A DNA stretch of 63,832 nucleotides, filler included, from Platydemus manokwari (Eukaryota), in assembly GCA_037951405.1 (NCBI GenBank). It is 6 parts of 6 records of this genome, joined end to end, with 100 filler letters (N's around TTAATTAATTAA, not from the genome) between each part and the next. Parts side by side here need not be neighbours in the genome. Positions count along the whole stretch, not along the records: positions 10,061 to 18,975 come from JBBMOY011330428.1; 5 more parts are not named here. One strand, written 5' to 3'. Below the pieces are notes generated by a model. That model did not search any database, had not been told where the DNA came from, and worked only from the letters and a program-made list of their open reading frames with translations. Below are positions 1-63,832 of the stretch, piece after piece (position 1 is the stretch's first letter; each line of letters opens with the position of its first letter). Position numbers and translations under genes: made by a program.

Positions 1-3000
1 TATGCATTCCAAATCTAGACTCTGTGCATTTCTTTAAGATTATAAAATAATGGTTTAATAATTATTGTAATATTTCAAATTTAAAAAGTACGTCAGCTTG
101 CTAGAAATTATGCTTCCATAATTTATTATACATAACAACATTATTTATTGTTAATTCATGACTTCGTCCAAAATTAGTATCTACTACCCAACTTATTATG
201 GTGGTGCATTTCATACTAAGAGTACACGCTTTCTGCACTACTTAAAGATAATCTGAAATTAATCATTGGCTTTAAGTATTCAGAGTTAGATTATGCTTTT
301 TTTATTTCTGAAATAATTCATTTAGTTAGATAATAAGCCTACATATTTTTGAGTTAATTCATATTTTTTGAATTGACATGTTTTAACATTTAGTATATGC
401 AAATCGTTTCTTGCGATGCCAACCATTTATATTGTTCTGTGGAAATATGGACCTTTTTACTTTTATCAAGTGATTTTATAAAATGTCCTCAACTTTAGAT
501 AACGTATACAAGCCATATAAATGTAGCCATTCAATCCCAAACTTCTCTCTCTCAACACACACAAATACATGTATGTGAAGTAAATATTTCACAGACTGAT
601 ATTTGATATCAAAAAGAGCTTGCAATTTTGAGTCTTCTGTATCTATTACACATAAGCTCCAACACAGTCATTGGATTAATCTTCATTAATTTTCCTTATA
701 ACGATGATTCTAAAGTCATTCGTTACCTTAATCAACAATTCTTAATGATAACCAAAAGGCATTGTATTACCTAACTTAACTTAATATATTGTTATCATAC
801 TTATGAAATAAATGAAAAGATGTGGATTTTGTACCAATAAAAGTCCTGAACATTTGAAATGTACACTAATTCGATTAACTCATTAAAAATTAAGGTATCA
901 TTAGTAGTACTGCGAAATATGGACAAGTTTTCATCATAATTTTTAATAAAATATGTGGACACGTGTTTCAAGAAATTTTAATGTTTAAATAAAATGTATT
1001 TTAAAAATAAAATAACTTTATAAATGAGTATCATTTAGGAAATTTATATAATTTACAATTATTTTATTCAAAGATGTTAAGGTTTAATACACGGAGTTAG
1101 AAAAAATATTTTAAGAAGCATTTGCATGCCATTAATGATACAGTTATTGCACTATTTCAATTCGATGTAATATCAGCAGTTAGTTCTTTAAAAGTCTCAA
1201 TAAATAAATTTAATTACTTTTATTTTACCTTTCCTCTTATGAAAATTATTTAAAGTATTTTTTATCGATGATACGAAAAATAAGTTTTTATAATTTCACA
1301 AGCCACTACTTTTAGAATTTTGTTTGAATATTATTACACATAATTTATGCCATTTTGAAAATCTGTAGTAAATTTTGAGTTTTATGGATATTCTTATACG
1401 GTAATGAGGTACTTAGAATATATTTTTTAATCTAACCTGGTATTATGTTTCCTTTTCGGTATTGAATTAACAATTATTTAAATTCTATGATGAATAAAGT
1501 AATTTAATTTAAATTGAATTAACTGTCAGTTTATCCGAATTAATAATGAAATATATTTAAGTATAGAAATTAATAACTTTTGAAAATATGAATTATATGC
1601 CTTTAATTATTGTTGAAGTAAGTTTTCTGTTTAATAAATTTTGTATCACGAAGTGGAATTGTTTTCGAATTTGCGAAAACCGAGATTTTCGTTATTTTAA
1701 TTTTCGGTCATTTTTTTCAAATTATTTTGTAGTAACACAACTTCACTTTTAATTTTTCTTTTATATGCACTAAGTTTCTTGGGTTAGCTTAGAAACCTAA
1801 ATTTAGAACTCTAAATAAATATTGGACATGATAGCCTGCAAAATATTCACAAAATTTATATACTTATTAGTGCCAGTTATTTGAGGTTCTATGAAAACCC
1901 AAACTCAAAAATTATTTAATTAGATCAATATTTATTAAAAGCAAATAAAATTATAAATAAAGTCGAAATAGTATGGCTGAATATTATATTTTGTACATGT
2001 TAATAGGCCCAATTCTGTATTTGTATTTAACGTTTTATTTTAACATAATGGTTGATTTATCATAATTTTATTATGCTTTTGAATAAGTTTTAAATATAAT
2101 CTGAGTTGTAAAGCAATCTTTACAGTTCGTGTTTTTTCATTTTGAATCTGTAAAACATTAAAATTAGTTAAAAATTCTTTATTGTCACTGAAAAATTAAA
2201 ATTGCAAATATATGATTCAGACTTTGAATATTATAGCTTGGTTATTTCTATGGGGTAGAAGTTAGCTGAATTGTATCGCTGAAATAAGAGAAACGAATGT
2301 ATTTGCTATTCTAAAATAAATTTACGTTTTTAATAAACAGCTATAATTTCGATCTTTGGATTATACGTAATTAGAGGATTCAACACACTTTTTAGACACT
2401 TCCTAATTTGATTGAGTTTTTTAAAAATGCTGCTAGGACTAAGATATAGATGAATAAATTCCATCAGTACCTGGCTTTTAACAATGGTAAATTTTAGGTT
2501 GCAGGTTAACACATGTGTTTACTTCAACGTTGTTTTGATAATTTCCATCTTTTCATAATAATTTAAATTCTTCAGATTTGCAACTCAATTAAAATTGTCG
2601 TTTTGTAGCAATCTAGCTCCCATTATTTGTTTCATTTTAATTTCATCGCTATTAGTTTTAAAATCAAATTCTTTTTCTAAAAACATTAGTTTTCCTAATT
2701 GCTTTTGTATCGATTATGCTTCTTTATCGAATTGTAGCATCCAGTAATTATTTATTATAAATTTTATTTCCTACGAACTGATCTAATTTATTCGATATTT
2801 TTTTTATTTATAAACTTTTACAACGAATTTCTGAACTTTGCCTAACCCTAACTATAATTTATAGACTGCCTTATAATTGTAACGGTTCAATTTACAATAT
2901 AATTCTAAATATTAAATTTATGAGATGTTCGAGAGTAATGATAAAGATTTTACTTTGTAAATAAACGTAGCCTTGTTCTATGTAAACTCGGTGATGAGTA

Positions 3001-6000
3001 GACAGAGTTCGCGATTAACTAGAGTTCGGTTGTTTAACTAGAAAGTATAAACCCACTAGATGTTGGCTTATCATTAAACTGAAAAATAAATGTAATATTC
3101 GGATTAAAACGATAAATGTATTTTTAATTAAAGCACTGAACTGGATTTCGTCGCAGAAACAGTTATTGAGATTATTTATAATTATAAAATTCATTATGCG
3201 GGGATTCTATTTTGTAATTGAGTACCAACTTGACTTGAATAACAATTAGTAAACTTGAGATTTTGTGGATAAATCTTGCATAACTATTTTCTTCATAAAA
3301 TTTCTTGACCATGAATCACTCTTGTTTCAAATTTGATTCTGAATTATGTGATCAGAATGTTATGATTAAAAAAAAATTTGTGACCAAATGTTCTTTCGTT
3401 ATTAAAATCTATTACATGGTAGTATTTATAATTTTCTTATTTGACACTGTCTTTGTTCGTTAGTTTTGTCATCTCTGTGTAATTTATTGCATACCGATGG
3501 TATTATTATTAACACATTTATTTTTAATTGCTTGTATACATTTTTATGTAATTTAATGAATTAAAATTTTTATTTTTATATTATTCTAATTTTAGAGACT
3601 AATAATTGTTCGATACTTTAGTTGTATTCATTATAAATCGTGCATACAATTTAATTCTAGGCATTACTATCTCTTTCAATGTTTAAGGTAATTTTATTTT
3701 TATTTTGCTTTGATGATTATTAGTTATATTGTTGCTTCGGGTTTGTATAATCGAAAAAGTTTAATTTTTGTTAGCACAAAGCAGACTTTTGTTGAGTAAA
3801 ACAAAACATATTTAAATTTTAGAGTTCCTAAAGACTTATGTTCGTACTTATTTATTTATTGAACAATTTATTTCATTTTATTCAAATACTTTATCCGCGT
3901 ACGAGGGAGCTTATTCAACAAATTCTTGTAATACTTCATCTATGCGCTTGGATTTCTAAAACTAAAAGCGAGACAATTTTATTTATAAAAGAACAGTCAT
4001 GTAAATCCAAAAAATATTATGTCCTTTTAGTGTGGCAGCTGACTCGAAGCAAATAATTGGAAAGATTCAATTAGATTTGCAGGTTTTAGTTGAGTAATAT
4101 CGATTAATCGTATTTAATTTAATAATAACATCGCAATAAGCCAGTTTCTTTAAGCTTAATTTGAATTTATTTGAGTATTTAGGAACTGACATGTTTATTA
4201 ACATAACTTTCCCACAGCAAACAACGACCTTTACTGTAAAGCATCAAATAAATCATCTTCACACAAAATTCTACAAAATCATTTTAGGAACAAAGAATTT
4301 ATCACAAGGAAGTCATCACCAAAAAGATAAAACGCTGTTAAATTGCAAACCAAATGCCAATTCAATGTATTATCAGTTTTTGTGTGTTAATTGATGTATT
4401 GTGTATTGATTTCCATTTGTTATAACTATCTAAACCTTATTAAAATATTTTGATTTGAGACTTTTCTTATTTCTTCGATGTCATTGGTCGACTCTAAGTA
4501 ACATTTCTTTTTGTTGATATTTATATGTTTTGACGTTGTCTGCCTATTTTGATTTATTATTATTTTTTTTTATTAATTTTTATTATTATTATTTTTATTA
4601 TTATCAGCCTCGAACATTTTATTTGTTGAACACTATCGCAACTTATATGTTTAATACTTAATTTTCGCCTATAACTAACAAATTCGTATGAAAAAGAGGC
4701 GATTTACTTATTAAATTTTTCTCTTTAAAATGGCACCAATTTCATTATCGATAAGGTGGTGAGGTAATAAATATCAAATTTTATGTATGATGTTAGTAGC
4801 CCTATATTATAACAGAACAGATATTTTATTTTCACAATACCCCGTGAATAAAAACATGGTACGAACGACATATACACTTGGGAATTGGTGATTTATAAAC
4901 TCATTCGTTGTATTGAGGCAAAGTCAAATTTAATGTGGTGTTCATTTACTCGATAAAAAATGTAACGACCAAATGTAGATTTTGATAATTTTAAAGGCAG
5001 GGAACGCTTACTAGGCATATGGTCTTATTAGTATATATTTGACATATTATGTAGGTTGGATTCTGCAAACCATTTTAGTGGTTTTGGTATATTATCTGGC
5101 CAGTGAATTAGTTAATCTTCTAACTCATAATATCGAAAATTGTCTTACATAATTTGTGCAAATACTGCTTTGTTACTGTTCTGTAAACAGTTCGGTTCAG
5201 TTCCTACCAAATGTATGGGTTTTCCTGTAGAGTATTTTGTAAAAATAATTATTTTTAATTATTGAGGGGAATTTCAGAATTATTCTTTATTCCATCAATG
5301 GAATATATTTATTCATAAATAATTTTAAATTAGGGAAGTATTTTTTATACTTGCTTTTTAATATATTATCTATTAAATTTATAGCACAAATTTTGTAAAT
5401 TGGTCTTTATTATTTTCTCCCGAGTTTTCAATATAGAAATATTATGGTTTAATGGATGGTTTTTTATTATTTCTGTCATTGGTGCCTCTCCATTGTCATC
5501 TTAATGTTATTCTATGTTTTCGAGTGAGTGTAATTATTCTTGATGATTATTATTGATGATTAATATTATATTATTTTGTCGCATTTTTCCATTATCGTAA
5601 TTACTTTTCAATCAAATATTATAATTATTATTTTTATTATCACTACCTTTTTTATGAAAATATAAACGACAAAGAAAGAGATCAAAGTCAAATGAGGAAT
5701 TATACAATATACAGCAAAGAGATAAATAAAATCTATGTTTTTGACATATCCCCAACATTATGATCGATTACCAATATTTTTTTGTGATTTGAAATCTTCC
5801 TTTTTTATTTTATTTATCTGTATAATCCAGGTTTTCTTTCGTCTTTATAAAAACACAATAAATTGTCTTAATTATCAAAGTTAAATAATAATTTATTGAT
5901 TTAAATATAATTGACAATTTTTTCATTTAATCAATTATGGGTCGGCGTTACATGCGTTAAGATACATATTGATCATTTATTTAAATTTATCAAACGTCCT

Positions 6001-9960: not shown

Positions 9961-10060
9961 NNNNNNNNNNNNNNNNNNNNNNNNNNNNNNNNNNNNNNNN
10001 NNNNTTAATTAATTAANNNNNNNNNNNNNNNNNNNNNNNNNNNNNNNNNNNNNNNNNNNN
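9961..10060. other. Artificial contig spacer (N-run, TTAATTAATTAA, N-run)
   Basis: 100-bp N block with an all-frame stop linker. Same design at 18976-19075, 32552-32651, 42410-42509 and 51372-51471. Confidence 0.97.
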
Positions 10061-10974
10061 TATTAAAATTTTAATTATAACATTTTTTTTAATAACATTA
10101 TAAAAATATTTTTAATTATTTTAATAAATCCTCACAATATTTATGGAAAATTCCTTATCATTTTCAAACATAATCGGAGTTATCACGAGCATAATATTAA
10201 TATAGATACCCTTTATAACCTCGTACATTCGTATCTAGATAGATATCTAGATTGAATCAAAGTTTAATATTTTTAATGTTCTGACTGCAACACTGTCTAT
10301 CCGCTTCTCTTCTGCTCATTCTGACTGCGTATCGACATGATATTCCAGGATTTGTGATTAAGTTATATGTTTTTCTTCTTCTTCACTATTGATCTTGTTT
10401 CCATCACGGTTAGGTTTTTATTTCGGAACAGCAGTCGAATTCGATTTGTTTGAGATAAACAAGCTTACACAATGAATACTGGGAAATTATATTTTATTGA
10501 ATTATGTGTTTAGGTACGCTGGGATTATTAGTGAATTAATTTAGGATTGAAATTAACTAGCAATATTCTTGGTCTATTCTGGGTCTAGCAATATTCTGGG
10601 TCTATTGATATTTTTACTCATTTTTTATCAAGATTCCAGATGAAGATGTTTGAAGTCTTAATTTAAAAAAACGTCGTCATCAATATTTCATGGATTATAT
10701 GTGACAGAATCGATTCAAACTATTAGAAGGAAAATAATTAAAAAGGGGCATAATCATGGCTAAAACAAATGGATGTGATTTTGGATTTTCCTTATGTTTA
10801 AATATATTAATTTTATTTTTTTAATTATCAATAATAACAGGAGTTTCAAGCGTGAAACTAGTAATAATATATTTTTATTAAGAATAATAACAAATAAACT
10901 ATAAAGATATATCAATTTAGTTCTTGTTTTCAAAATAGTTCTAAAATTTTGTTTTAATTAATTAATAAACTTAA

Positions 10975-11720
10975 TTTCACTAACTCATTATCACAAAATC
11001 TTTCCAATATATTTTCTTCTTTTAAATCCATCAATTTAAAAGTTATGGGTTTGGTTTTACAAACCTCTTAATGATAAATATTTCTTCAGAATATTTTGTA
11101 TTATATCATTTTTCAAATTTAATTTTATATTTATAAATTCTCAACCAATCTAGAATTTTAAATTTTGGTTTACCATTTAAATTATTATTAAAATTATTCC
11201 ATTATTCAATTTTTTATTTAATTATTTAAGGGTTTTTACTTGCTTCAATAGGACTAACACCAATATTTGTATGTCTTTTATTATTATATTTATTAACAAC
11301 ACTTTGCTATAAATAATTATCCCATTTATAACTGCAAGTAGTCTTAAAATGTTTCCACATAATATTTTTCAAAGTTCTAATAAATCTTTCTGCAAAAACA
11401 GTTTTACCTTCATTTTCAGTATGATATAAAATGATTTTATTTTCATCACAAAAATTTTTAAAAAATTTAATTCTAATTCCAGATTCTTTAGCAAACGATA
11501 TATATTTTGGAATTCTTTTGTCTTTCTTAGAATGACTTTCAAGGGCTTTCACCAAAGTTTCTTGTTTTTTATCTTTCATGAAAGTACACCAACCATATCT
11601 TGTGTATAAATCAATAACAACGAAAATAAACATAAATTTTGTAGCTTTTTTAGACATTATAACTAAATCTGCACTATGGGTATTGCTATTTTGATGTTTC
11701 AAGAGAAGATTTTCTTTTTC
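10975..11720 (-). pseudogene. Polinton/Maverick retroviral-like (rve) integrase
   Basis: ADLV...VVIDLYTRYGW...AERFIRTLK...W, continuing past a stop as KYNNKRHTNIGVSPIEA and YSEEIFIIKEV...KLMDLKEENI, the typical Maverick integrase C-terminus. Confidence 0.88.
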
Positions 11721-12146
11721 TTAAAATTTATTTAATATAAAATCAAATTCAATAATATAAAACTTAATTCAATATAAATTAAATTCTCCTAATTCAAATT
11801 AAATTCAATTTGATATACCCGTTTTTATAAAATCTTTGATTTTCCTTGTATTCTTAATATACATTGCAACGAGTTCTTGTAATATTTATCTGCATAAAGC
11901 TCTCTTATTCTTCTGTCTTATATAACTTCTATATATCTTCTATATATCGTCTATATATCTTCTCTATATCTTCTTTATATCCTATTTATATCTAATCTTC
12001 ATCTTTTTATCTTATTTATATATTTTCTATATAGTATCAACATCTTTCTATTTATTTTACTTAATTTTCAGTAATTTATCTTCTCAGAATTGAGTACAGA
12101 TGCGTGGTCGCCATGTAGGAGCGGTTACTTCGCTTGTAATTGGATA

Positions 12147-12597
12147 GGAACAAAAGATAAGAAACCATGTAGTAATGTAAAAACATAAACAGCAAGTACA
12201 TCAACTAATTATTTAGCATTTAAGCCATTCAATGATATTGATAATAATGGATTATATACAGGAGATGACAGAAAAAGCAAGAAAGCATATGTTATACCTA
12301 ATACAGAAAGAGAACGTTATAATGAACTTGGCGCTTAAGGTATTACAAGAAAGTATATATGAATCAGTCAACTATGAGGCTTTGCTATCTGCGGATCACT
12401 TTAAGAAGGCAAATTAAGGGTATGTTTTATTGTCTATACGAAGTTTCCAAGAGATAGGACAGGTTTTTGCGTTTCTTCTTAGAATATACTGCATAATAAC
12501 AATGATTAATATAATATTTTCATCTACAATTTCGGCTAAAACCTTGAAGGATGTTTTCAGATCTTCTTGGCAAGCGATGTGCTTCATTATTGGTAAA
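12147..12597 (+). pseudogene. C-terminal ectodomain plus transmembrane fragment of a chuvirus-like glycoprotein (copy B)
   Basis: 12147-12306 aligns at DNA level with 18620-18777. It continues KARKHMLYLIQKENVIMNLA...SFQEIGQVFAFLLRIYCIITMINIIF...WQAMCFII, which resembles the membrane-proximal and TM region. Confidence 0.7.
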
Positions 12598-12680
12598 ATA
12601 TCAAAAGGACATAGAATTTTTAAAAGTAGATGGTCTTACCAAATATTTTCAATACATCTACAAACGACTGACCCTGAAAG

Positions 12681-13280
12681 TTACCTTGTAAACATATCAA
12701 ATTCTTCAAAATAAAATACCACTCTCTCCGACTTCTTATTAGATTCGAGACCAATATCCAAAGCTTCTTTTACAGACAATGATTTCGGAATGTCTTTCTC
12801 CACTACTGTTGTCATTGCCTTTTGAGAAGCCAGGATGAAAGGTGATTCGTTATATTTATTGACCAATTGATTATCGAATAAATCGTCAGTGATTATCTTA
12901 TTGATAACTTCTTCAGAAAAATTTTCTTTGAATAAATTAGTTAAAAATGTTTCTCCAATCTCGAGTAAAATATTTTTATCTTTACAATGTTCCATGGATC
13001 TCATAAGTAGTATGTCATCGCTTTGTTTGAGAGCCAAGTTGGCCAAGCTAAGAAGTGTCTGATCAGATACAGGAGTTAACTCAAAATTATCAAGAATTAA
13101 TTGAATCAATTGAATGTTTTCTTCTTTGATTAAATCCGGCAGTAAATATTGATGAAAATCAATTTTCAAAAGTCGTTTCTCGTTTTGACTAAATGATTTA
13201 ATAAATCTAATAAAATCAATAATTTCAATGTCTTTCATTGGTAAGTACTTTTTATCTTCGATTTCAACCATATTTTTCAC
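12681..13280 (-). CDS. Helical-repeat/ankyrin-like protein (exon or decayed gene)
   Basis: 199-aa ORF with NKYNESPFILASQKAMTTVVEK, similar to an ankyrin repeat. An upstream in-frame NLEI*IVKNMV suggests decay; possible AAG|GTAACT donor near 12685. Confidence 0.45.
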   Translation of the reverse strand: MKNMVEIEDKKYLPMKDIEIIDFIRFIKSFSQNEKRLLKIDFHQYLLPDLIKEENIQLIQLILDNFELTPVSDQTLLSLANLALKQSDDILLMRSMEHCKDKNILLEIGETFLTNLFKENFSEEVINKIITDDLFDNQLVNKYNESPFILASQKAMTTVVEKDIPKSLSVKEALDIGLESNKKSERVVFYFEEFDMFTR

Positions 13281-14229
13281 AATTTAAATTTCTAGATTTC
13301 GGTCATCAGTGGTTCTTAATAAAGTATTTAATAAAAAATCCTTTTCATCTAATTAATTATATATTTTTAATAAATAATATATTATCATACAATATAGGAA
13401 TTTATATATTATATTATATAAGTTTATAAAATTAATTTTATCAATTTGATACTCCGAGAACATCTAATAAATTAAAGCATCAAATGAACCAAATTGAGAA
13501 ATATAAAAATTCAATCAATCGAGTCCGATTCATTTATCAAGGTGCTGTATTCTCAATAATTTATAGTCCCAGTGTTTATCCAGAAAATATTCCTAACTAA
13601 AAACATGACACCTTCAATATCTTATTTTTAAACGCAAACGGAATTATATTTTCATCAAATATTTTTTCTTATAGATTTTTTTATAGATTTTACATAATTA
13701 CTTTACAGATTTTTTTGTTCTGTTATTGATGTACAAGTTTAGTGAGATGAAATTCTAAATAAAGAAAAACGGAATTGCAGCTTGAAACTATCGTTTAAGC
13801 ACTTAAAACTTTTACATCCCTACACAACCATAGAAATCAGCTATTCGTAGTGAAGATAGTAAACGACAATTTGAAAAAAGGGCATAGCTAAGAAAAAAAT
13901 TCAGAGATAAGGATCTATATTTATTGCAGCATAATTTGCGTTATTGTATTAAGTAATACTTATCAAGGAATTTGGAGTCAGAGTTTCATTAACTGTATAG
14001 AACTATTCAATACACGTTATTAATTTGATCTAATATATAAAGAGAGTTGAGATATTTTTTATTAATTGTTAAAACATAAAAATATTATTAAAATATCACG
14101 ATTCAGTGTGTAAGCTCTGCTTGTGCTTGAAATAGATTTTATTCTTTGCACACAAATTGAAAAAGATAGTAAAATAATCGAATTAGAAAATTGTAATGCA
14201 CCATTATACAAAATGAATGAGGGAATTGT

Positions 14230-14650
14230 ATAAATGTGTTTATACCTATAAACCCCTATGATTTGAGACAAGAAGTTTTTGATTATTACTTCAATGAATA
14301 TGATATGACCGGACACAGGTAGAACGATTTCAGAGGTTGTCATTGTATTTAAAATCATACACGTTGCAAATATTTCAAGGATTACACTTTAGTGAGATTA
14401 AGTGAGATTGTAATACATAAAATTAGTTGCGGAATTAAATAGAAAATTAGTTATGGGGATGATGTACATGAATTTTATATAAAACAGTGTAATGATAGAC
14501 ATCAAATATTTGAAGAAACTATACGAGAATATTCAATGGCATTAAACAAATAAGTAATTAATGCTTTTTGAAAAAATGAATCTGTTGAAGGGCGTAAGAA
14601 AATGATTATAGGTTAATTTAAAAGGGGATAATACCCTTATTACAGGTTCA
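14230..14650 (+). pseudogene. Ty3/gypsy-like gag capsid fragment
   Basis: Frameshifted RLSLYLKSYTLQIFQGL...YGDDVHEFYIKQCNDRHQIFEETIREYSMALNK*VINAF...FKRG, matching the retrotransposon gag R-x-Q-x3-E-x3-EY motif. Confidence 0.65.
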
Positions 14651-15861
14651 ATAGCATTTGCAGAATATGAAAATTTAATGAGTTATTTCATATATCTAAT
14701 CGAGTTGAAATAATTTGCGAATCAAATAGTTTGCCAAATCGTAATATGAGTTATTGGATACCTAGAAATTATCCATTAGTAAGCACAATAACATTTAAGG
14801 GAGATAAAAAGGAGATACATCCCACCACTGTTAAAAATAACATAGTGGCTAAAGATGATGAGTAAAATTTTGATATTAATATGATATGGGAATAATTAAA
14901 CAAAGTGTTAACGCAATTTCAAATGAAGGACGATAATGTTAATCAGGAAATGAATAACTAAAAAGAAAAAAAAGAAAAATTAATAGGGATAAAGAATTAG
15001 ACACAAAAATAAGAGTAAAAATTTTGTGGAAAAAAGCAGAACAGATATATTTAAAAAAAGGAAAAAGAGGAATTAAAAGGAAAATTAGAAGAATTAATGT
15101 TTAAGGAAATATTTCACGATCGAATAAAAAAAGGGAATTTTGACATTATGATCAAAAAGAGAAAATGAAAAGTAGGGAAGATAAGTTGAAAATATTAGAC
15201 AGGCTTTTAGAAAAAATTCGTACATAAACTCAAGTGAAAATAAAGAAAACGCATTGTACTCAAGTAGTAAAAATTATAATAGATCTTGCATAATGAAGAC
15301 ATTAAGACGAAAAGTCGAAAAAGTACAACAAAATGTTAGATATGAAAATTTTGAAAAGATTAGAGAAATGATAAGAGAAATACAATTACAAGCAAGAGAA
15401 CCAAGAAAGTTAACAGATTAAGATTACATTAAAATGTTGTGAAAAAATAATAAGGATAAACACGGAATTACAAAAACCGTTTAGATTAAGCATTTGGACA
15501 TTTAAGGGAAATAAGGATCATAAAATAAAATTCCCAATACATGCATGGACAAACGTTAATAAACTGAAGAAAACAATAACACAGCAATTACATCAAAAAT
15601 ATGACATAACAGCAGAGAATATGATAATATTATGTAAACCAAAGGAGTTAGAAGATAATGAATATTATGATCCGGATAGTCTCTGAATTCATTCCAGTAA
15701 AAAAACGAGAATATAATTGAAGTCAATAACGAAAAAAAATGATTAGAATAATAGGGAAATTTGTATGTTATCTAATAGGAAAACTGTTGCGCGAGATAAG
15801 AGAAAGAAGGTACTAGTGATTTTAAGACGACGGATAGTCATTCCGTTATTTTGGCACCCAA

Positions 15862-16033
15862 ATTTGATTATGAGGAATTCAAAATGGATAATGAGAAATT
15901 TGAAGTTTAGTAAGAGGAATCTAAAATTGATATTGAAAATTATCTAAGATTTGATTATGAGGAATTCTAAATGGATAATGAGAAATTTGAAGTTTAGTAA
16001 GAGGAATCTAAAATTGATATTGAAAATTATCTA
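15862..16033 (+). repeat. Tandem duplication, 87-bp unit x2
   Basis: atttgattatgaggaattc...gaaaattatcta occurs at 15862 and 15949, nearly identical. Confidence 0.95.
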
Positions 16034-17315
16034 CGATAATCTAGAACAAATGAGGGGTTAGACTTAATTAAGACCCATATTTAAGGAAGATGAAATAATC
16101 TCAGTGAGTATAGTAAGTCGGACAAACAAAATTACACAATTAACACAATCTCCTAGGATAAATATAATATAAATATAATAAGCTGTCAAGAGGGAAAAAA
16201 CCAAGAAAACGAAATAAAAAATTAAATAGAAGTAAAAAATGATAAATTGAATAGCCACTAAACTAGTAGAAATCCTAAAAGTGAAAAACAGCAACAGTTG
16301 AATATCTAAAATATGAAATTCATCTAAACTGGCCATTAAAAAGAGAATTAACTAAAGGAGGATCATATAAAATAGATGTATGGATGTTAATAAGGAAAAA
16401 AAGATAAAAACAGAAGTACTCATGAATAATGAGCAAAAACTGGAATATTACTAAACATGTGCAAATAAAGAAAAAAGGATAACGGCAATCATGAAAACTT
16501 GGGAAGGAAGAATTAGTAGAAAAGAAGATAATATTAAATTACCATAGTGGTTATTAGGAGCATTTGTATATCAATTAAAAAGAAAATTAAAGAAAAGGAA
16601 GAAGAAGAAAAATTTCGAATAAGTTGAATTGCATCAATCAAGTGGTTTAAGAAATGGATATCACAAAAACATGAATAATAAAACAGGAAAAAATACGTGG
16701 TAAGATGATAGTGGTAAGAGATAGTATGAGCAAATGACTAGTAAGTAAAGACAATCAGTACATAGAGAAGACAGAAGTGTTAAACAGCTATAGTGACGGA
16801 TTGGGAGACAAATAGGTTAATCAAGAAACATAGAAAAGTAAAACAATCAAAGAGAAAAATAGAATAATATTTCATAAATAGAAGAGAATGTGAACCAAAC
16901 AAAATATTTATGAAATATAAACAATGGACTTTAGTAAAAATATAAATTTTGAAAGATATGTTCTGGGAAAGACCAAAAAATATAGTAATAGTTAACATAA
17001 ATGTACAAAAGAAAAATATACGAAGAATAATTCCTTGAAGACATGCAAATTTGAACGTATGTTGAGGGTATAATGCAAAAAACAGTAAATGTAATGAATA
17101 ACCAAATAATCAGTAGAGATAAAGGAGAGGAATTGATACTAAATGAATATTAAAATGAAATTAATCAAAGTCATCGATGGACTAAATTAATACAATCAAT
17201 TTTAGAACGAATATATGAAAATGAGAAACTAATAATAAAAAAGAGATAAACAATTAGAAAACATCCGCTTAAATAAAAATCTAAATATATCACCGTGGTT
17301 CAAACGTTATTAACA

Positions 17316-18780
17316 ATGTATTTAGTAGTATTACTGGGTTGTGTAGATACATGAATAGACGGTTATTAATGCTGTAATCTACAAATGGGACACAAATACT
17401 TATTATTTGACATAGATAAATGTCTGGGGGCATACCCAGTAAATTTAACAAAATCTTTAGCTAAGGAAATGTATGTGTACCAAAAGTCCGAATTTCTAGT
17501 GAAAAGGCCAGAGAATGTAAAATAATATTTCAAAAATTAACATTTAATTGATGGTTATCAGTAACATATACAACAATATTAGAACCGGCATGAGCATCGG
17601 TGCAGAAATATCAACAGAGAAAAAATACAGACAAGCATTTGAAAAATGTACATATTACACATCACAAGTATATGCAATAACATTAGGAAAAGGAATTACA
17701 AGACAAACAATAGAACCAGGAGGATATTTTAGGGATCAGAATATTTTAGGTGTGGAATAAGGTGCTCGAAAATGTAGTAGTGCTAAAACATTATATCTCA
17801 GAGTTACGAGAATCTCAATTAACATGTGACGCACAAACTTAAAAAATCACAAGGTGAATAAATTGTGAACATGGAAAAGAAATATGTGACATAGGAATAT
17901 CATTAATCATGTATAAGGTAAACCCATATCAATGCTCATTACTTAAAAAATCACATCCAATAAGTGATAAAATGTTAAAAGAAACAAAATTTGCATAGAG
18001 TTAGTTATTCGATTGTAATTGAGAAACATCTGAATTGAGTTTGAAAGAAACATCTACAGTATGTATGAGTGAAGAAGAAAAAAGTGCAATGAGATTAATA
18101 CATAAAGGATATGATAAAAGATGTGCTCAAGTGGCCATAGTATCAAATTATAAGAGAATATACTTAAGCAAAAATGAAATGAAAGATGCTAAAAAGGCAG
18201 TGAATAAGTTGGATGTGAAACTGGCACAATACTTTAACATTAATTTGGACTATTTTTATCACTTAGCTCATGAAATAATGGGAAAGGTTTATATAAAATT
18301 AATCTTGAATTTCTGTAAGCTTAGTAGAGAAATATTAAAGACCAAATTAGCATTAGCCATAACAAATATTTAACGAATAAGCAACATTTGATCTAGTTGT
18401 AGGATATGTTATCTACACCTTTAAGGATAAAAACGTCAAAATTTAGTAGTAAAAAAACATGAGCATTATTCCAACAAAATGTCAATAATATATAATAAAC
18501 AAAACACATTCATGCAGCCGATTACGAGAATCATACTAGGACATAATTATAAGACGTCACATTATCGCTTTTCCAAACGCAATGGTTTCTATATTTCGAT
18601 CGGTCGATGGAAGAAGGCTGGAACAGATGATAAGAAACCACGTAGTAATGTAAAAACATTAAGAGCAAGTAGACCAACTTGAAATTTGGCATTAAAACAA
18701 TTGAATGATATGGATAATAATAGATAATATACACTAGAAGACAGAAAAGCAAGAAAGCATATGTTATACCTAATACTGAG
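17316..18780 (+). pseudogene. Chuvirus-like (class III fusion) envelope glycoprotein ectodomain (copy C)
   Basis: Colinear blocks across frameshifts: IDGY*CC...FDIDKC...YVYQ...ARECKI; KLAQYFNINLDYFYH...VY...NFCKLSREILKTKLALA; VVGYVIYTFK; TFMQPITRII; KARKHMLY. Order and Cys pattern fit chuviral G proteins as recalled. Confidence 0.72.
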
Positions 18781-18975
18781 GGAGTTTGAAACAGAATGAA
18801 GAAACAATAGAGAAAGTGATTCGAGATCAATGGGTTCTGAAGTACGGAGCACCAAAAGAAATACATGTAGATTGCGGTAAATGTTTTGAATCACAGAAAA
18901 TCAAAGAGATGGCTTTTAGAATGGGGACGGATATAATATTTTCCAGTCCATATCACCACAATACAAATGGATTGA
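18781..18975 (+). pseudogene. Ty3/gypsy integrase core fragment
   Basis: WVLKYGAPKEIHVDCGKCFES...FSSPYHHNTNGL (rve core); truncated by the contig end. Confidence 0.9.
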
Positions 18976-19157
18976 NNNNNNNNNNNNNNNNNNNNNNNNN
19001 NNNNNNNNNNNNNNNNNNNTTAATTAATTAANNNNNNNNNNNNNNNNNNNNNNNNNNNNNNNNNNNNNNNNNNNNAATCTTTATTACCAAGAAAATAAGA
19101 ATACAACATTTTTGTTAACATAGACATAAGGTATATTCACACAAAACTTTCAGACAA

Positions 19158-20117
19158 TTATTCTTCTGCCTCCATCTGAGTTAACAATTGCCTAAGATCG
19201 TTGTCAAATACACTCATGGTTGTTGGTTTCGAATGAATTTCAATTGGAAAACTTGGAGCTATCAGTGACGGAAAAGGTAGATTATTTGGTAATTCATTTT
19301 CGACATCCCAGTAATCATTAAAATTTAAAAACAGAATTATCGCGATGTCTACGCAATAAAACATATTCGTCATCCTCAAGCTCGAAAGGTGGATTTCTCA
19401 TCAAGAATTTTGGTTGGCAAATAAATGTCTGATTGAATACTACATTTCAGTAAATTTAGGTTTGCTTGTAGGTAAGTACGGATTTTCCGATTTTACGGGA
19501 GAAGTACTCTTAAATAGAGGTTCATTAAATTCATGCAATTTTATACGCCTTTCAATTGCACCTCTATGCTCAATAGTTATTTTCGGTAAAGATGATTCCC
19601 ATTTATTGGTAGTAATGATTCTTGGAAGAATCATTGGTAATTCAGCATGACTATACTTTGCATTGCAGGAATAAGGACGTTCTAAGTAGATCATATGAAT
19701 TATGTCGGTGGCATGCATTCCTCTCAGACTATAATCATCAAAAACAACACTATTAGTTACATTAGGATCCTCTGATATTTTATTTAAATTTTGACTACAG
19801 GTAGCCAAAACAGGTATTTTAAAATGATGTAATGAAAAATTAGTTTCGCCAATTGTGGTAGGAACTTCAAAAATATGAGTAAGATTATCCCATACATTAA
19901 TTAGAGGTAGAGTAAATAATGTATACAACTTAGCTACTGATTCCCCAGCATGGTTAGCTAAACTTCCGCTAATCGATTTACGTTTCAAAGTATATTCTTT
20001 TGGTTCAGGATTACGTAGTAAAGTCATTGCATCAGTTTTATTGGAACGATCATATGCTTTTCTAAACCCTTCGATCCAACAAATGTTACTAAATTTATTG
20101 TAGAGAAACTCATCCAA
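19158..20117 (-). pseudogene. Endogenous CRESS-DNA-virus-like Rep, SF3 helicase domain with C-terminal extension
   Basis: Degenerate Walker A (HIFEVPTTIGETNF), Walker B (VVFDD), B' region (CNAKYSHAELP), motif C (PRIITTN) and Arg finger (AIERR). AATAAA on the minus strand at 19080-19085. Confidence 0.8.
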
Positions 20118-20307
20118 CAGGTTAATTCTAATAGTCGCGTTTATACTATTAAATCTTACAAAATTACCTATTCTTCTATTTCAAGTTTACTTATGAAAAA
20201 TAGTATTAATTTATTTCAAACATTTATTCGTAATAATTCTTTTAGATTTCTCATCGGTAATTAATGTTTATCATATGACTTGTCTGCGAATTTAAGTAAC
20301 TTTATTG

Positions 20308-55312: not shown

Positions 55313-58300
55313 AGTGACGTTATATTTGTTTAAATAATTGGTTGGCTGATTAGTGTAGTTTTTTAAATAAATATTATGCCTGCATATCGCTCTCGATAAC
55401 TGACTAGTCACGAGAAAGGGTACTGTGTTACCATGAAGGAACTACTGACTTCCCACGAGTATGTTATTTACTTTAGCCAATACTTGTACGGGAAGAAATT
55501 GGAGACTTAAAAACAACTGCTAATGAAACAAATAAAACTTTAAATGAGGTTATTCAGAATTTTTAATTCTCGATAAATGCAACTCCTGGTAACATAAACT
55601 GTGCAGGTTTTTATATAAATTCAGAAGCGTTTTTAGGAAGAGATGGTAAAGGTATTAATGAAAATTTTCTACAAAGTAAAGTTCCAAAATTTAATTATTA
55701 ATTAATAAGAATTTTTAATTATTAAACATAAAGGGGAAAATCAATTAAATTTAGCTGATAGTTCTCTTATTAAATTAAATAAAAATTTCAATAATTTAAT
55801 ACATGGAAGAATTGATGAAGAAAGACTAAAAAGGGAATGAAGCTTCCCTGTTCAAGATATAGATATATATCCAGATGTTTTAAGGAAAGTAGGAATTTCT
55901 GTTCAACAATTTTTGAAAATTAAATATTTAACGGATCTTAAAGATGTACAAAATAAAAATGAATAAAATGATTCCGTAATTCAAAATAAACTTAAAACAT
56001 CGAGAAAAGGATTAAATAATTATCATTTAAAGTTGTCACCACAGGCAAACCAAATAGAATGTTTTTTATGAATTAAGAATTTTATGAATTAATTAAATTT
56101 TGTTTTATAAAATGGTAGCAAAATTAGATGCAAATTGTTATATAAATTTAAACATGGAATTAACTCATAATTAACTACAGAATCAAATTTACACCAACCC
56201 AAAGATATCATTTTTGAATATCAACAAACTTCAAATCCTATAGATATTTGTAATAAAAAATGCTACTGTTGTAGAATAAGACCATAATATAACTTTAGAA
56301 AATAATTTCTTTCCTAATTTATTTAATTTTGTGAGATTAACATAGGGAACACATAAAATTGAAAATATTGAAAGTGTTGGAGAAATATTTAGAATGTTAA
56401 ATTTAATATTATTAGATCAATCTGATGAAAGAACAGGAGAGTGAATGAATTCCAGATAAAACTAATGAAGATCAAAATAAAGGCAATAGAAGATTTAAAA
56501 GAAGAAATGCCTTTTATAATTTAAAAAAAGAAGTTCACAAGACGATTTCCAATGAAACATATATTTGGATTTTTAGAAAGCTACAACAGACCATTATTTT
56601 TGATGATGATTAAATTAACCTTAAACAGAAATATAAATGATAAGAAAATATTTTACAGAACAAAAGGGGAAGAAAAATTAACTATCAAATCATTGGAAAT
56701 TTGTATTCCTGGATTAACCCTAAATCCAGAGAACGAGCTTGAATTATTGAAAAGAATACTGATGGAATATTATGATATTCTTATGATAATAATAATTCGA
56801 ATCAATAAGATACTCTCAATGATTCAAATCTTATTTTATTGCAGTCAGTCAAAAGCAGATTTATGGATATCCACCTAAAATATAACTATTCTCAGAAATA
56901 AGGTTGTGTTATATATAATGTACATAGATTATAACAAATATGAATAATGAATGATACTTTGATTGATAAGCAATTATACAATATATGATAAACTAAGTTA
57001 AAAGTGGAAGCTTTATACCCTGAAGTAATTAAAATCAGTAGAGGGTCTAGGCACTCCATACTTCGAATAAAAACTTAAGAAATGATTAATCATTTTAGGT
57101 CTACAAACTCTAACGACTTTGTAGATTGCAATTTACTGTTTTCCAACTAATCGCCTGTCGGTGATTGATGAAACAATAACAATGACATGTATGAAAAAAG
57201 GCTTTAAAAGGGTAGAAATTCATCTCGATGCCTATCACAAAGCCCTGGTATTCTTGAAATCGACATGAAAACCGATCAGTTTCCGCTTTCAAACATGGAT
57301 GGCTGCGCTGTCACAATACGATTTCGATTTAAGATACAGAAATGGAGAGAATCATAGCAACGCAGATAGATTGTCTAGAATCAACGAGACACTATGTTCC
57401 CAGTGCAAGACGAGACATAATGAAGCAAAGATGGAAAAGCCGAAAACCAAATATTTAGCCCAAATGCAAATAAAATCAGGGATAATGCAGAAAATACAGG
57501 AAACACAGCATAAAAGATGCAGAAATAGTGGAGACATTCAGATTTCTAAATAGTGTGAACATTAGTTGTGAACATTACCAAAATATACATAATTCATAAT
57601 TATAAGAACTACCTAGTAGTCATTATCGACAGATTCAGCAAGCTGGTGAGCCTCACTGCTACATCTAAGCGAGACGAAAAGACAATCTTCCAGGTCATTT
57701 TGAACTTGTGGGTTTATTGTTTTGGAACGACAGAGAACATTATATCTGATAACAAAAACAATTTGGAAGCAAAGTTATGAGGGAAGCGTGTTTAATGTTG
57801 GGTATCAAACAAGACTTCATCTCACCATGCCTGCATCAATTCAACGGGCTAGTGGAAAGAGCTATGTAAGAGCCATGAGAAAAATTGGGCTGAATTGTTG
57901 CAAGCATATAATTCTGCATCAACGCAACAGATCAATTAACAACGAGGTTCTCGCCTTTCGAGATCATCTACGAGCGGAAGATCAATGTTCATACAGATGT
58001 GAGTCACAAGAACCAAGCTCAAAATGATATTGCAGCAGCAGCTTGAGAAAACCGATACAGGGGGAAAAGAACACATCAAGTTTTTCAGGTGGGAGAGAAG
58101 TTCTAGTTCGAGTAGATCCCCATAAGAGGAAGAAGAATAGATGCCAGTACGAAGACCCCTACCGAATCACCGTTTTAAAGTCAGACAGACAAATGGCCAT
58201 AAAATACAGACAAGTAAGGTGACTGGAACGATGGAGCAGGCTTTAAGAGGAGGCCAGTGGAGTGCTTAAATAAACAAACAAGTTGTATTTGTTTAAATAA

Positions 58301-58365
58301 TTGATTGGTGGATTAGCGTAGTTCTTCAAATAAATATTATGCCTGAAAGTGCTGATGGCGTAACT
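55313..58365 (+). mobile_element. Internally deleted Ty3/gypsy element inserted into pPolB
   Basis: LTRs 55313-55401 and 58256-58365 (AGT...TAACT), ATATA target duplication (55308-55312 and 58366-58370), PPT taagaggagg, RNase H end (LSQYDFDLRYRNGENHSNAD) and integrase pieces (VIIDRFSK). Confidence 0.85.
56110..56770 (+). pseudogene. Polinton double-jelly-roll major capsid protein fragment
   Basis: TESNLHQPKDIIFE...ITLENNFFPNLF...KIENIESVG...PMKHIFGFLESYNR...KLTLNRN...KLTIKSLEICIP resembles the Maverick MCP N-terminal jelly roll. Confidence 0.7.
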
Positions 58366-60620: not shown

Positions 60621-61233
60621 TAAACGAGATTTCACAAATTTGGTTATTTCGTTCATTTACAAGATTTATTTTTATAAGGTTTTGATTTTATGGTTTTTTA
60701 GTTTTTCTAATTTTCTAGTTTTTAAAAAAATGTGTTTTATTCAATATGATACCATAAGTAGTAAGTAGGACCAAACCTTGAGCCTGATCCTCAAATACGA
60801 GCTCTGATTCTACTTACTACTTACAAAATTCTACAGAATTGCTGCATCGATGAATTACTTGTTAGAATTATCAATATGTACGATTGTCAATTCTCACAAA
60901 AATTACAATAATCAAAGAGTTCGATATTTTACAATATGATCAATATTAATTATGAAACCTCCAAAATTTGAAATAAAAATTAAACAATTGTGCGCTTCTT
61001 GGAAATAGCTGCAACTTTCTCTTCTTAATATACGTAGAGGAAATTAAACTTCAATCAAGATATTTTTCATTATAAAAATAATTTTATAATAATTTATTCA
61101 ACTTTTATAACTTTAAAAATAAATTAAAGATATAAATAAATAAATAAAATAATGGTGTATTGAAATTATTCAGATTTTAAAGATACTAAAAGCACAAATT
61201 TGATAAATATACTTAAATAAATGAATGATTTAC

Positions 61234-62850
61234 CTTTATTTCATTATCATTAACATTTATCTCGGCATATATTTCATAACAAGCATCAATATAATTGAAT
61301 AGTTTCACTGGTAAGCTCAATTGTTCATCCAATTTCATTGAATATGGAACATAGATATCCGTAAAAAATGGTAAAATGACTTTTAATGTTTGTGATGGAG
61401 CAATCCAAATGCCTTTTTCTGTCATACAATAAGCATCAGCTTTCCATGTTGTCATGGAATCTGGAACAGTGAGATTGATGAATTTAGTTGTTTTAGTAAA
61501 ATATGAAAATAGCCATGATTCAGGAAAATATTCTCTGATTTGTTTTTTCAGTTCAGATTTTACTTTAGGTTCTTTAAAGATTTTCCTTTCCATAAGTAAA
61601 CCCTTAATCATATCATCGTCATTTTCTAAACTATAATCTAAAGTATAAGGTCTTCTATAGTATTGGCACACAGAATTTATAACTCTCGCATTTGTTATTG
61701 ATGCAAATCCGGAGTTAGCGAAAGCTTTACTACTGTCAAATCCATTTCCAAATCGATGCCGAAAAATTCGCGTCTTATTTTGCACAGGAATACATAAAGA
61801 TTCATTACTCATGATATGTCTTGAATCGACGGTAATTTTATGATTTAATTCAATAAGTTTTCTTATCAAATATTGTAAATCAACGTTACTGGATTTTCCA
61901 AATTGAGATAGAGCTATATCACTGATTCGAACGGCACATGAAGTATTTTTCATTCCAGAATCCATTTCTAATACAACTTTGGATTTCGGAACTGATGTTT
62001 TCTTATTAAATGAAAACTTTCCACCACCAACATGAGAACAATTCGATAGACCATCAGATATTTCAATTGAATCAGCTACAACTTCTTGATTAGAATTAAT
62101 AAAATACACAACAATATGTACATCAGGTCCCATATGTTTCGATAAAGGGATTTCAATTATTCGTTCAAATATGCTTAGCTTTTCGTATTTTTTTACAATA
62201 TTTGGTTTTTTATTTGAAACAGTGCCAATTGGCTCATTTCTGGAATAATACAACTTTAGACCCCTTTTGGAACAATCCCAATTTGTCCATCCAAAATAAC
62301 ATTGGCAATCGTTTCCATATTTACAGTATCCATGTTTACAATAATAAGGTTTGATGCATTTGTCACAACTATTCCCTTTCCATCCTATTTTGCAAATACA
62401 TCTATTTGGTTCAACACAAGCTCCATTTACACAATCATCATCACAAATTGGTTCTCGACAATTATTACCTTTCCATCCAGATTTACAAACAATTGAATGA
62501 TCATCTCTACAAATATAATGACCTAAGAAGTCATCTCGAGACTCACATTTAGTCGGAACTGAAGGAACTCTAAGCATAGTAATGATTTGACCACGAGAAA
62601 ATATTTGTGTATATAAATCGATTGTTGATATATCATAGTTGGTTAAAATGGATAAATTAATTTGACCTGGACATCGAATGGATTCAGTAATTGGTTGAAT
62701 CTGAAGATAATGCTTATCTACTGAATTCCAATTTGATAAAGTTTGATAATTGGTTGGATCAGCCATGTGATTATTGAGATTACCTAAAAAATAATAATTA
62801 AATTCTAAAGCATTAGAGTTTACTATTAAATTTGAAGATAATCTTATCAA
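61234..62850 (-). CDS. Alpha-2-macroglobulin/TEP/CD109-family exon with an inserted DSL-EGF-EGF module
   Basis: A2M motifs SRGQI, VVYFI...EVVADSI, IREYFPESWLF, VPDSMTTWKADAYC and PFF...PYS. The Cys-rich insert CESRDDFLGHYIC...GWKGNNC...GWTNWDC is in frame. Donor AAG|GTAAAT at 61233; 5' boundary uncertain. Confidence 0.9.
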
Positions 62851-62903
62851 TGTATATTATCAAATTTCAGTCAAATTAAGATCATTTATTTCAGTAATAC
62901 ATA

Positions 62904-63832
62904 AGTTACATCACTGACACTTGTAGACATAATGTTTATTTAAAAACTGAACTAATCCGCCAATCAACTATTTAAACAAATACAACGTGTTTGTTTATTT
63001 AAGCACTTTACTCGTCTCCTCTTAAGTATTGCTCTATCGTTCCAGCCACCCTACTTGTCTGTATTTTATGACATGAGAGAATTGAATCTCCATTTGTCTG
63101 TCTGACTTGAATACGGTAATTCGATACGGACCTTTGTACTAGTATCCATTCTTCTTCCTCTCTTTTTGCTAGCCGGTTCGATTGATGCTGGTATGGTGAG
63201 CTGAATTCATGTTTGATACCTAATTTTGAACACGCCTATCACATTAATTTGCCTCCAAATTGTTTCCCGTTTTCTGATAAAATGCTCTTTGGTTTTCCAA
63301 AACGATAAATCCACGAGTTTAAGATGTCCTAGAAGATTGTCTTTTTCGTCCTGCTTAGATGTAGCAGTGAGGCTGACCAGCTTGCTGAATCTGTCGATAA
63401 TGACTACTAGGTACTAATTGTAACTATGCATCATGTATATTTGTGCAATATTCACTACGATTTGCTCATGAAACTCAGAGGCTAACCGAGGGAACAGAAA
63501 CTCCTTAGTTCTGAATTGATCAATCTTTCTCTTTGCACATATAATACATTCTTTCAGGATCTTTTTGATGGTGTTGAACATGTAGGGCCAATAAAAACTG
63601 TCGTCCAAATATGAAAAGGTTTTCTTCGAGTCTAAGTGGCAGAGTTCCTTGTGAATTTTCTTGACAAAATGAGCGGCAAACTTTTTTGGTATTATAGCAG
63701 CGAACCCCTCATCTTTCTCTAGCATCAGCGTATTGTTGACCACCATTAGTTTATCTTTATTAGGCTGAGTCAAAAGTTATTCATGTTTTTTAGTTGTTTA
63801 AAGTTTTTGTTTTACCAAATCATTTAAACATA
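62904..63832 (-). mobile_element. 3' end of a Ty3/gypsy element (same family as 55313-58365)
   Basis: H2C2 integrase (HKELCH...YWP...CIIC), rve remnants, PPT, and a 109-bp LTR at 62904-63012 that aligns with 58256-58365. Confidence 0.9.

Follow-up and report, generated by a model that had tools for sequence, protein, structure and literature searches.

Introduction

Planarian Burro/GYPSM1 retrotransposons, as set out in the passages devoted to them by Arkhipova and Yushenova, carry in a single frame a gag, a Ubi/SUMO-like domain, a BCL2 domain, an envelope gene (env) and then protease, reverse transcriptase (RT), RNase H and integrase (PMC6431247). The same passages report that the Burro env matches mononegavirus fusion glycoproteins and that decayed copies of Burro type, with stops and frameshifts, occur in Dugesia japonica (PMC6431247). 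Extracts of the survey by Chary and Hayashi describe env of the glycoprotein B (gB) type on gypsy elements across many phyla, with mosquito chuvirus-like glycoproteins used as baits; they give the order GAG-ENV-POL for 'ancient errantiviruses' of Nematoda, Bryozoa and Platyhelminthes, argue for an ancient association, and list nine flatworm elements, six of them from Schmidtea mediterranea, in 1-215 copies (PMC13524379). A chuvirus-like glycoprotein is also carried by the mosquito Anakin elements of BEL/Pao type, according to the part of Dezordi et al. that treats them (PMC7642597). These systems are compared here with a decayed gag and env pair at 14310-18784 (plus strand) of a 63,832-nucleotide (nt) stretch of DNA from Platydemus manokwari (assembly GCA_037951405.1), the whole of which was analysed and is called the window below.

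The pair quite probably belongs to a dead gypsy retrotransposon like Burro, of which the 5′ two-thirds are left and in which pol would have come after env: a gag and a class III env, both decayed, lie on the same strand, and the copy is truncated within env. The order gag, ubiquitin-like domain, env and (pol) is likely that of Burro/GYPSM1 and of the published GAG-ENV-POL gB-type errantiviruses, the ubiquitin-like part being probable and the position of pol being taken from relatives. Judged by sequence comparison, the class of element is a described one and the family itself is not close to any protein found.

Set against the published description of Burro/GYPSM1, the likeness lies in a gag followed by a probable ubiquitin-like domain and by an env placed between gag and the expected position of pol. 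Unlike Burro, a giant element with long terminal repeats (LTRs) of considerable length and an open reading frame (ORF) encoding 4,873 amino acids, the element here, on a contig of 8.9 kb, is compact, with a gag-to-env distance of ~1,030 codons; it shows no signal for CCHC, Bcl-2, BIR or MATH, and neither a pol nor LTRs of its own were seen. With the HSV/gB-type (HSV, herpes simplex virus) errantiviruses of GAG-ENV-POL order, likened in the same way from their description, it shares the type of env and the order of gag and env; the published elements are intact with pol present, whereas the copy here is broken and truncated. Anakin, as far as that part of its source goes, has in common the broad env family and its presence on an LTR retrotransposon, but it belongs to BEL/Pao and to insects, while the relatives of the present element are gypsy, with Retrotrans_gag and the order RT-RNase H-integrase. 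No match to a Pao family (gag or pol) was obtained in the window pieces or in the relatives, and the gag fits Retrotrans_gag-type relatives.

Results and Discussion

The stretch under study occupies 10061-18975 of the window (record JBBMOY011330428.1), has ~27% G+C and is packed with fragments of elements. Since runs of N at 9961-10060, 18976-19075, 32552-32651, 42410-42509 and 51372-51471 join what are six separate contigs, neighbours across these linkers are not real.

The main env remnant (17289-18784, plus strand) is that of a class III fusogen of the gB/chuvirus type, running from a hydrophobic leader, with a hydropathy peak of 2.19 at 17289, to position 518 of a 653-position profile built from its relatives; the membrane anchor is missing. 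This profile was matched collinearly from position 5 to 518 across 17307-18781, and PF24664 was matched at 17768-18781, with stops read as X, at 28.9 bits (cut-off 27, E 3.7e-7). A long six-frame Pfam scan had overlooked the env, and PF24664 was recovered once shorter pieces were used. The gene is dead, since its main frame contains 11 stops in 338 codons; the frame also changes near 17500. A structure model of 17768-18781, with a predicted local distance difference test score (pLDDT) of 64 and a predicted template modelling score (pTM) of 0.37, gave nine matches at E ≤0.001 among viral structures, eight of them to glycoproteins of chu-like or related negative-strand RNA viruses and the ninth unnamed, all at 14-17% identity and with low TM-scores. 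In the PDB fold ranking, herpesvirus gB chains took the first four places, not significantly. A VIA search with the same model was set aside, only a long helix being matched (Z at most 5.7).

Upstream on the same strand lies a decayed gag remnant, the retrotransposon capsid gene (14310-14709). A profile built from the gag domains of four relatives scored 18.8 bits at 14455-14709, the highest score among 2,550 window pieces, compared with 1.7 bits for the best piece of the reversed window; this score was reached by none of 2,000 shuffles, and the same profile gave 5.7 bits on the other gypsy gag of the window. A further weak gag piece (14310-14408, 5.2 bits) lies in a different frame, and six stops fall within the 110 codons of 14380-14709. 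Neither a Pfam search of the window pieces at 14310-14709 nor a word-based protein search with the gag piece as query returned a match. A retrotransposon gag is present at the 5′ end of the element, as it is in the GAG-ENV-POL gB-type errantiviruses.

Between gag and env (14710-17288, plus strand) is a decayed accessory region rich in purines (0.61-0.69), part of a bias of 0.60-0.69 that extends across 14501-19000, compared with 0.505 for the window as a whole. Profiles for protease, RT, RNase H and integrase reached at most 3.3 bits over 14700-17300, below their reversed controls, and the same profiles do recover a gypsy remnant at 45-48 kb of the window. The env therefore follows the gag region without an intervening pol, as in the GAG-ENV-POL errantiviruses. 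Within the region, 15399-15686 (plus strand) is a probable ubiquitin-like domain with a preceding helix, in a position matching that in relatives. It includes a 90-codon open frame (15414-15686), and the ubiquitin-like profile of the relatives found its best window match at 15399-15665 (9.0 bits, compared with 6.9 for the control), a score reached by one or two of 2,000 shuffles. Atlas leads for the frame were to ubiquitin-family clusters at 0.85-0.88, below the 0.9 mark; its single-sequence model was poor (pLDDT 58.5), with a best Z of 4.8 and no E under 0.001 in the fold search. Pfam and word-based protein searches with this frame gave no matches. An 87-bp tandem duplication, 97-98% identical, follows at 15862-16037.

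Much of what an earlier reading of this DNA from its sequence alone (the sequence-only reading) had described is borne out by these results. It had placed a gag capsid remnant at 14230-14650, followed by about 2.6 kb of purine-rich decayed sequence devoid of RT, RNase H and integrase motifs and by a cysteine-patterned, chuvirus-like fusion glycoprotein at 17316-18780; the gag profile, the purine values and pol profiles, and the comparisons of the env with viral fusion proteins by profile and by fold agree with each in turn. Its assignment of gag and env, on one strand, to one gypsy-type element is likely correct for 14310-18784. The middle region, called novel there, is not wholly so, as it includes a probable ubiquitin-like domain, like the relatives and Burro.

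The layout of the complete element was sought in its relatives. A HMMER (phmmer) search with the env retrieved 33 relatives at 22-42% identity, the top value applying to a short piece only, with a best E of 2e-30. PF24664 was present in all of the 16 longest relatives, to which the domain scan was applied. Protease follows env in ten of these, accompanied by RT and RNase H in five and by integrase in four of those five; a pol domain precedes env in none, and a Pfam gag mark does so in three. Among the six that lack a protease, three stop within env, one has at its end a protease-like motif recognized by eye, and two (P0003 and P0026) stop just past the anchor. Two cluster members, P0034 and P0037, run from env through protease, RT and RNase H to integrase, and overall pol domains lie downstream of env in 12 of the 18 long relatives. 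Given that relatives have pol after env and none before it, the lack of pol in the region between gag and env is to be expected. Segments intervening between gag and env are also consistent with the proposed layout: by eye, a helical and ubiquitin-like segment is found there in five relatives, one with a weak Pfam ubiquitin match (E 0.019), and four have a weak Bcl-2-like segment just before env (best E 2.4e-5, below the cut-off). The distance from gag to env here is 1,028 codons, and the start of env falls at residue 790-1,345 in P0001, P0016 and P0026. In a tree the window env was placed within the set of relatives, on the P0001, P0003, P0005, P0010 and P0037 side (support 98), with a long branch (1.68). 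In a PDB sequence search the protease of the relatives was the sole match. Searches for the DNA around the relatives returned nothing usable; one locus, L001, was rejected since a bacterial gene was matched on the opposite strand. P0010, an env-pol gypsy polyprotein, appears at NCBI under a Flavobacteriaceae metagenome-assembled genome, where it is labelled a hypothetical protein; its DNA is probably of animal origin and was binned with bacteria.

The env breaks off at about 18785, before the membrane anchor, a point that the sequence-only reading overlooked. Joined to it in mid-domain is a piece of integrase core (18789-18974, plus strand; PF00665, E 8.7e-6) that extends to the contig end at 18975, 190 bases past the break. 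The piece was considered as the element's own pol and rejected: its identity to P0039, a pol lacking env, is 98%, compared with 31-36% for the integrases of eight proteins that belong to env-bearing elements, and an integrase tree separates the P0039 side from the env-bearing set with support of 100/100. It is a younger, unrelated element from another gypsy family that has no env, and it came to adjoin the env either through assembly or through a nested insertion accompanied by deletion. No piece of run X1 spans the junction among the 8 of 5,428 pieces listed; X1 is possibly the window's own sample and is hence not independent. Its summed depths, which are not copy numbers, peak at 937 for gag, 2,164 for the ubiquitin-like part, 1,185-3,939 for env and 145,766 for the integrase piece, and one X1 contig connects gag and the ubiquitin-like part with no differences.

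The earlier suggestion that the element lacks pol and is possibly non-autonomous is not supported, because the copy is truncated within env and just 190 bases of contig lie beyond the break, so that absence of pol cannot be read here; in this lineage pol comes after env. The source element would have encoded a single long polyprotein, running from gag through accessory domains, env, protease, RT and RNase H to integrase and processed by its own protease, with a gB-type env that may have let its particles fuse with neighbouring cells. The copy would then have gained stops and frameshifts, and its 3′ part may have been lost through a nested insertion with deletion or at an assembly join in a high-copy repeat. 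A flatworm host would fit the AT-rich DNA and the Burro-like order. As it stands, the copy encodes no working protein and is unable to supply an envelope in trans.

A second env piece (12138-12714, plus strand; profile positions 461-616, PF24664 at 30.1 bits) includes the membrane anchor and provides the tail missing from the main env. It lies 6,472 bases upstream of the main copy in the same orientation, is 85% identical to it over ~160 bases, and has one stop in 153 codons. Tail to tail with it is an open 200-codon frame on the minus strand (12681-13283) without a stop amid decayed DNA, for which the chance is ~0.0015 at the stop rate of the main env. An Atlas lead to ankyrin clusters (0.96-0.97), at a recognition of 1961, under the 2300 mark, tentatively suggests that this frame is ankyrin-like; no Pfam ankyrin match was obtained in it, and comparison with the relatives linked it to none of them. 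A third env piece, on a different contig (8694-9097, minus strand), matched profile positions 5-80 at 52.7 bits and is preceded immediately by a weak Bcl-2-like signal (10.2 bits, compared with 6.3 for the control), as in Burro.

Several observations weigh against a Burro-like element with pol after env. Neither a pol nor LTRs belonging to it were seen, the 3′ part beyond the broken env being missing, and a CCHC knuckle, looked for in the gag remnant, is not left there. No Bcl-2-like signal was detected at 16700-17320, a heavily decayed stretch before the main env, and the ubiquitin-like call is weak, the profile segments having been chosen by eye. By sequence no close family member was found, so the layout had to be taken over from proteins of 22-42% identity, and among these the frames of P0003 and P0026 end just after env. 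No protease was found after the second env piece (best 1.8 bits); in the relatives it starts 18-298 residues past env. Finally, one X1 contig (12273-12797) bridges the tail of the second env and the end of the antisense ORF.

Some of these observations bear on an alternative in which the element is a pol-less, non-autonomous unit consisting of gag, ubiquitin-like region, env and antisense ankyrin-like ORF, with pol and replication supplied by a partner. The contig would then hold env tail, antisense ORF, a 940-base gap, gag and env as an old tandem array that repeats every 6.47 kb. The spacing and shared orientation of the two env pieces, the tail carried by the second, the antisense ORF in place of a protease with the X1 contig across their boundary, and the frames of P0003 and P0026 that stop after env are all consistent with such a unit. 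However, the env pieces are just 85% alike and decay is unequal (stops in 11 of 338, 1 of 153 and, for the antisense ORF, 0 of 200 codons), so that they and the ORF appear to differ in age. The contig is moreover a patchwork of element fragments, an integrase at 11307-11720 among them, no LTR-like repeat was found in the window, the antisense ORF has no counterpart in any relative, and pol domains follow env in 12 of the 18 long relatives. We therefore regard a pol-less unit as unlikely.

That gag and env come from different elements nested by chance on one strand is considerably less probable still. The contig is dense in unrelated fragments, 2.6 kb separates gag from env, and no X1 contig spans both among the 8 of 5,428 listed; yet the purine bias of the plus strand is unbroken from gag to env, the gag scores best with a profile drawn from env-bearing relatives, and order and spacing match those of the relatives (1,028 codons, compared with an env start at 790-1,345).

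Least credible of all is the proposal of the sequence-only reading that a gypsy element captured a chuvirus glycoprotein independently in this lineage: the best viral folds are those of chu-like or related glycoproteins (the nine matches above) and the branch of the window env is long, but such length is expected from decay, the env is far nearer to the envs of retroelements (22-42% identity, best E 2e-30) than to viral glycoproteins (14-17%), the tree being without viral sequences, and the cited extracts of PMC13524379 both place this env type on gypsy elements of many phyla and argue for an ancient association.

As the probable remains of a Burro-like gypsy retrotransposon, the locus at present carries little weight, being another dead copy of a described class in a family distant from all proteins found. 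It would add a compact Burro-like family, with a layout of gag, ubiquitin-like domain and env that would be common to many unannotated polyproteins in public assemblies. If a pol-less unit were instead real, it would constitute a split enveloped retroelement system of ~6.5 kb multiplied by a partner's pol, and an intact one could provide gypsy elements that have no env with capsid and envelope. A narrow literature search on split enveloped retroelement systems yielded nothing relevant, and neither did one on the combination of Bcl-2, ubiquitin-like domain and gypsy env.

Additional observations

The window contains other mobile-element remnants. A separate decayed gypsy element without env (44267-48633, plus strand) retains gag, protease, RT, RNase H and integrase. 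The integrase core at 11307-11720 (minus strand; PF00665, E 8e-5) has a continuation that, by eye, we take to resemble Polinton or Ginger. A weak double jelly-roll capsid-like match at 56525-56878 (plus strand; PF21738, E 0.0028) is perhaps a Polinton remnant. The LTR search and a tRNA search of the window were both negative. An open 246-codon frame at 19440-20180 (minus strand) had no Pfam match and, by eye, presumably resembles the helicase half of Rep from a small DNA virus. Lastly, an uninterrupted 547-codon frame (61213-62856, minus strand) joins DSL and EGF repeats to pieces of alpha-2-macroglobulin (A2M_BRD, A2M), an odd fusion that is possibly element cargo; it is flanked by inverted gypsy integrase remnants at ~57565-58329 and 62939-63458.

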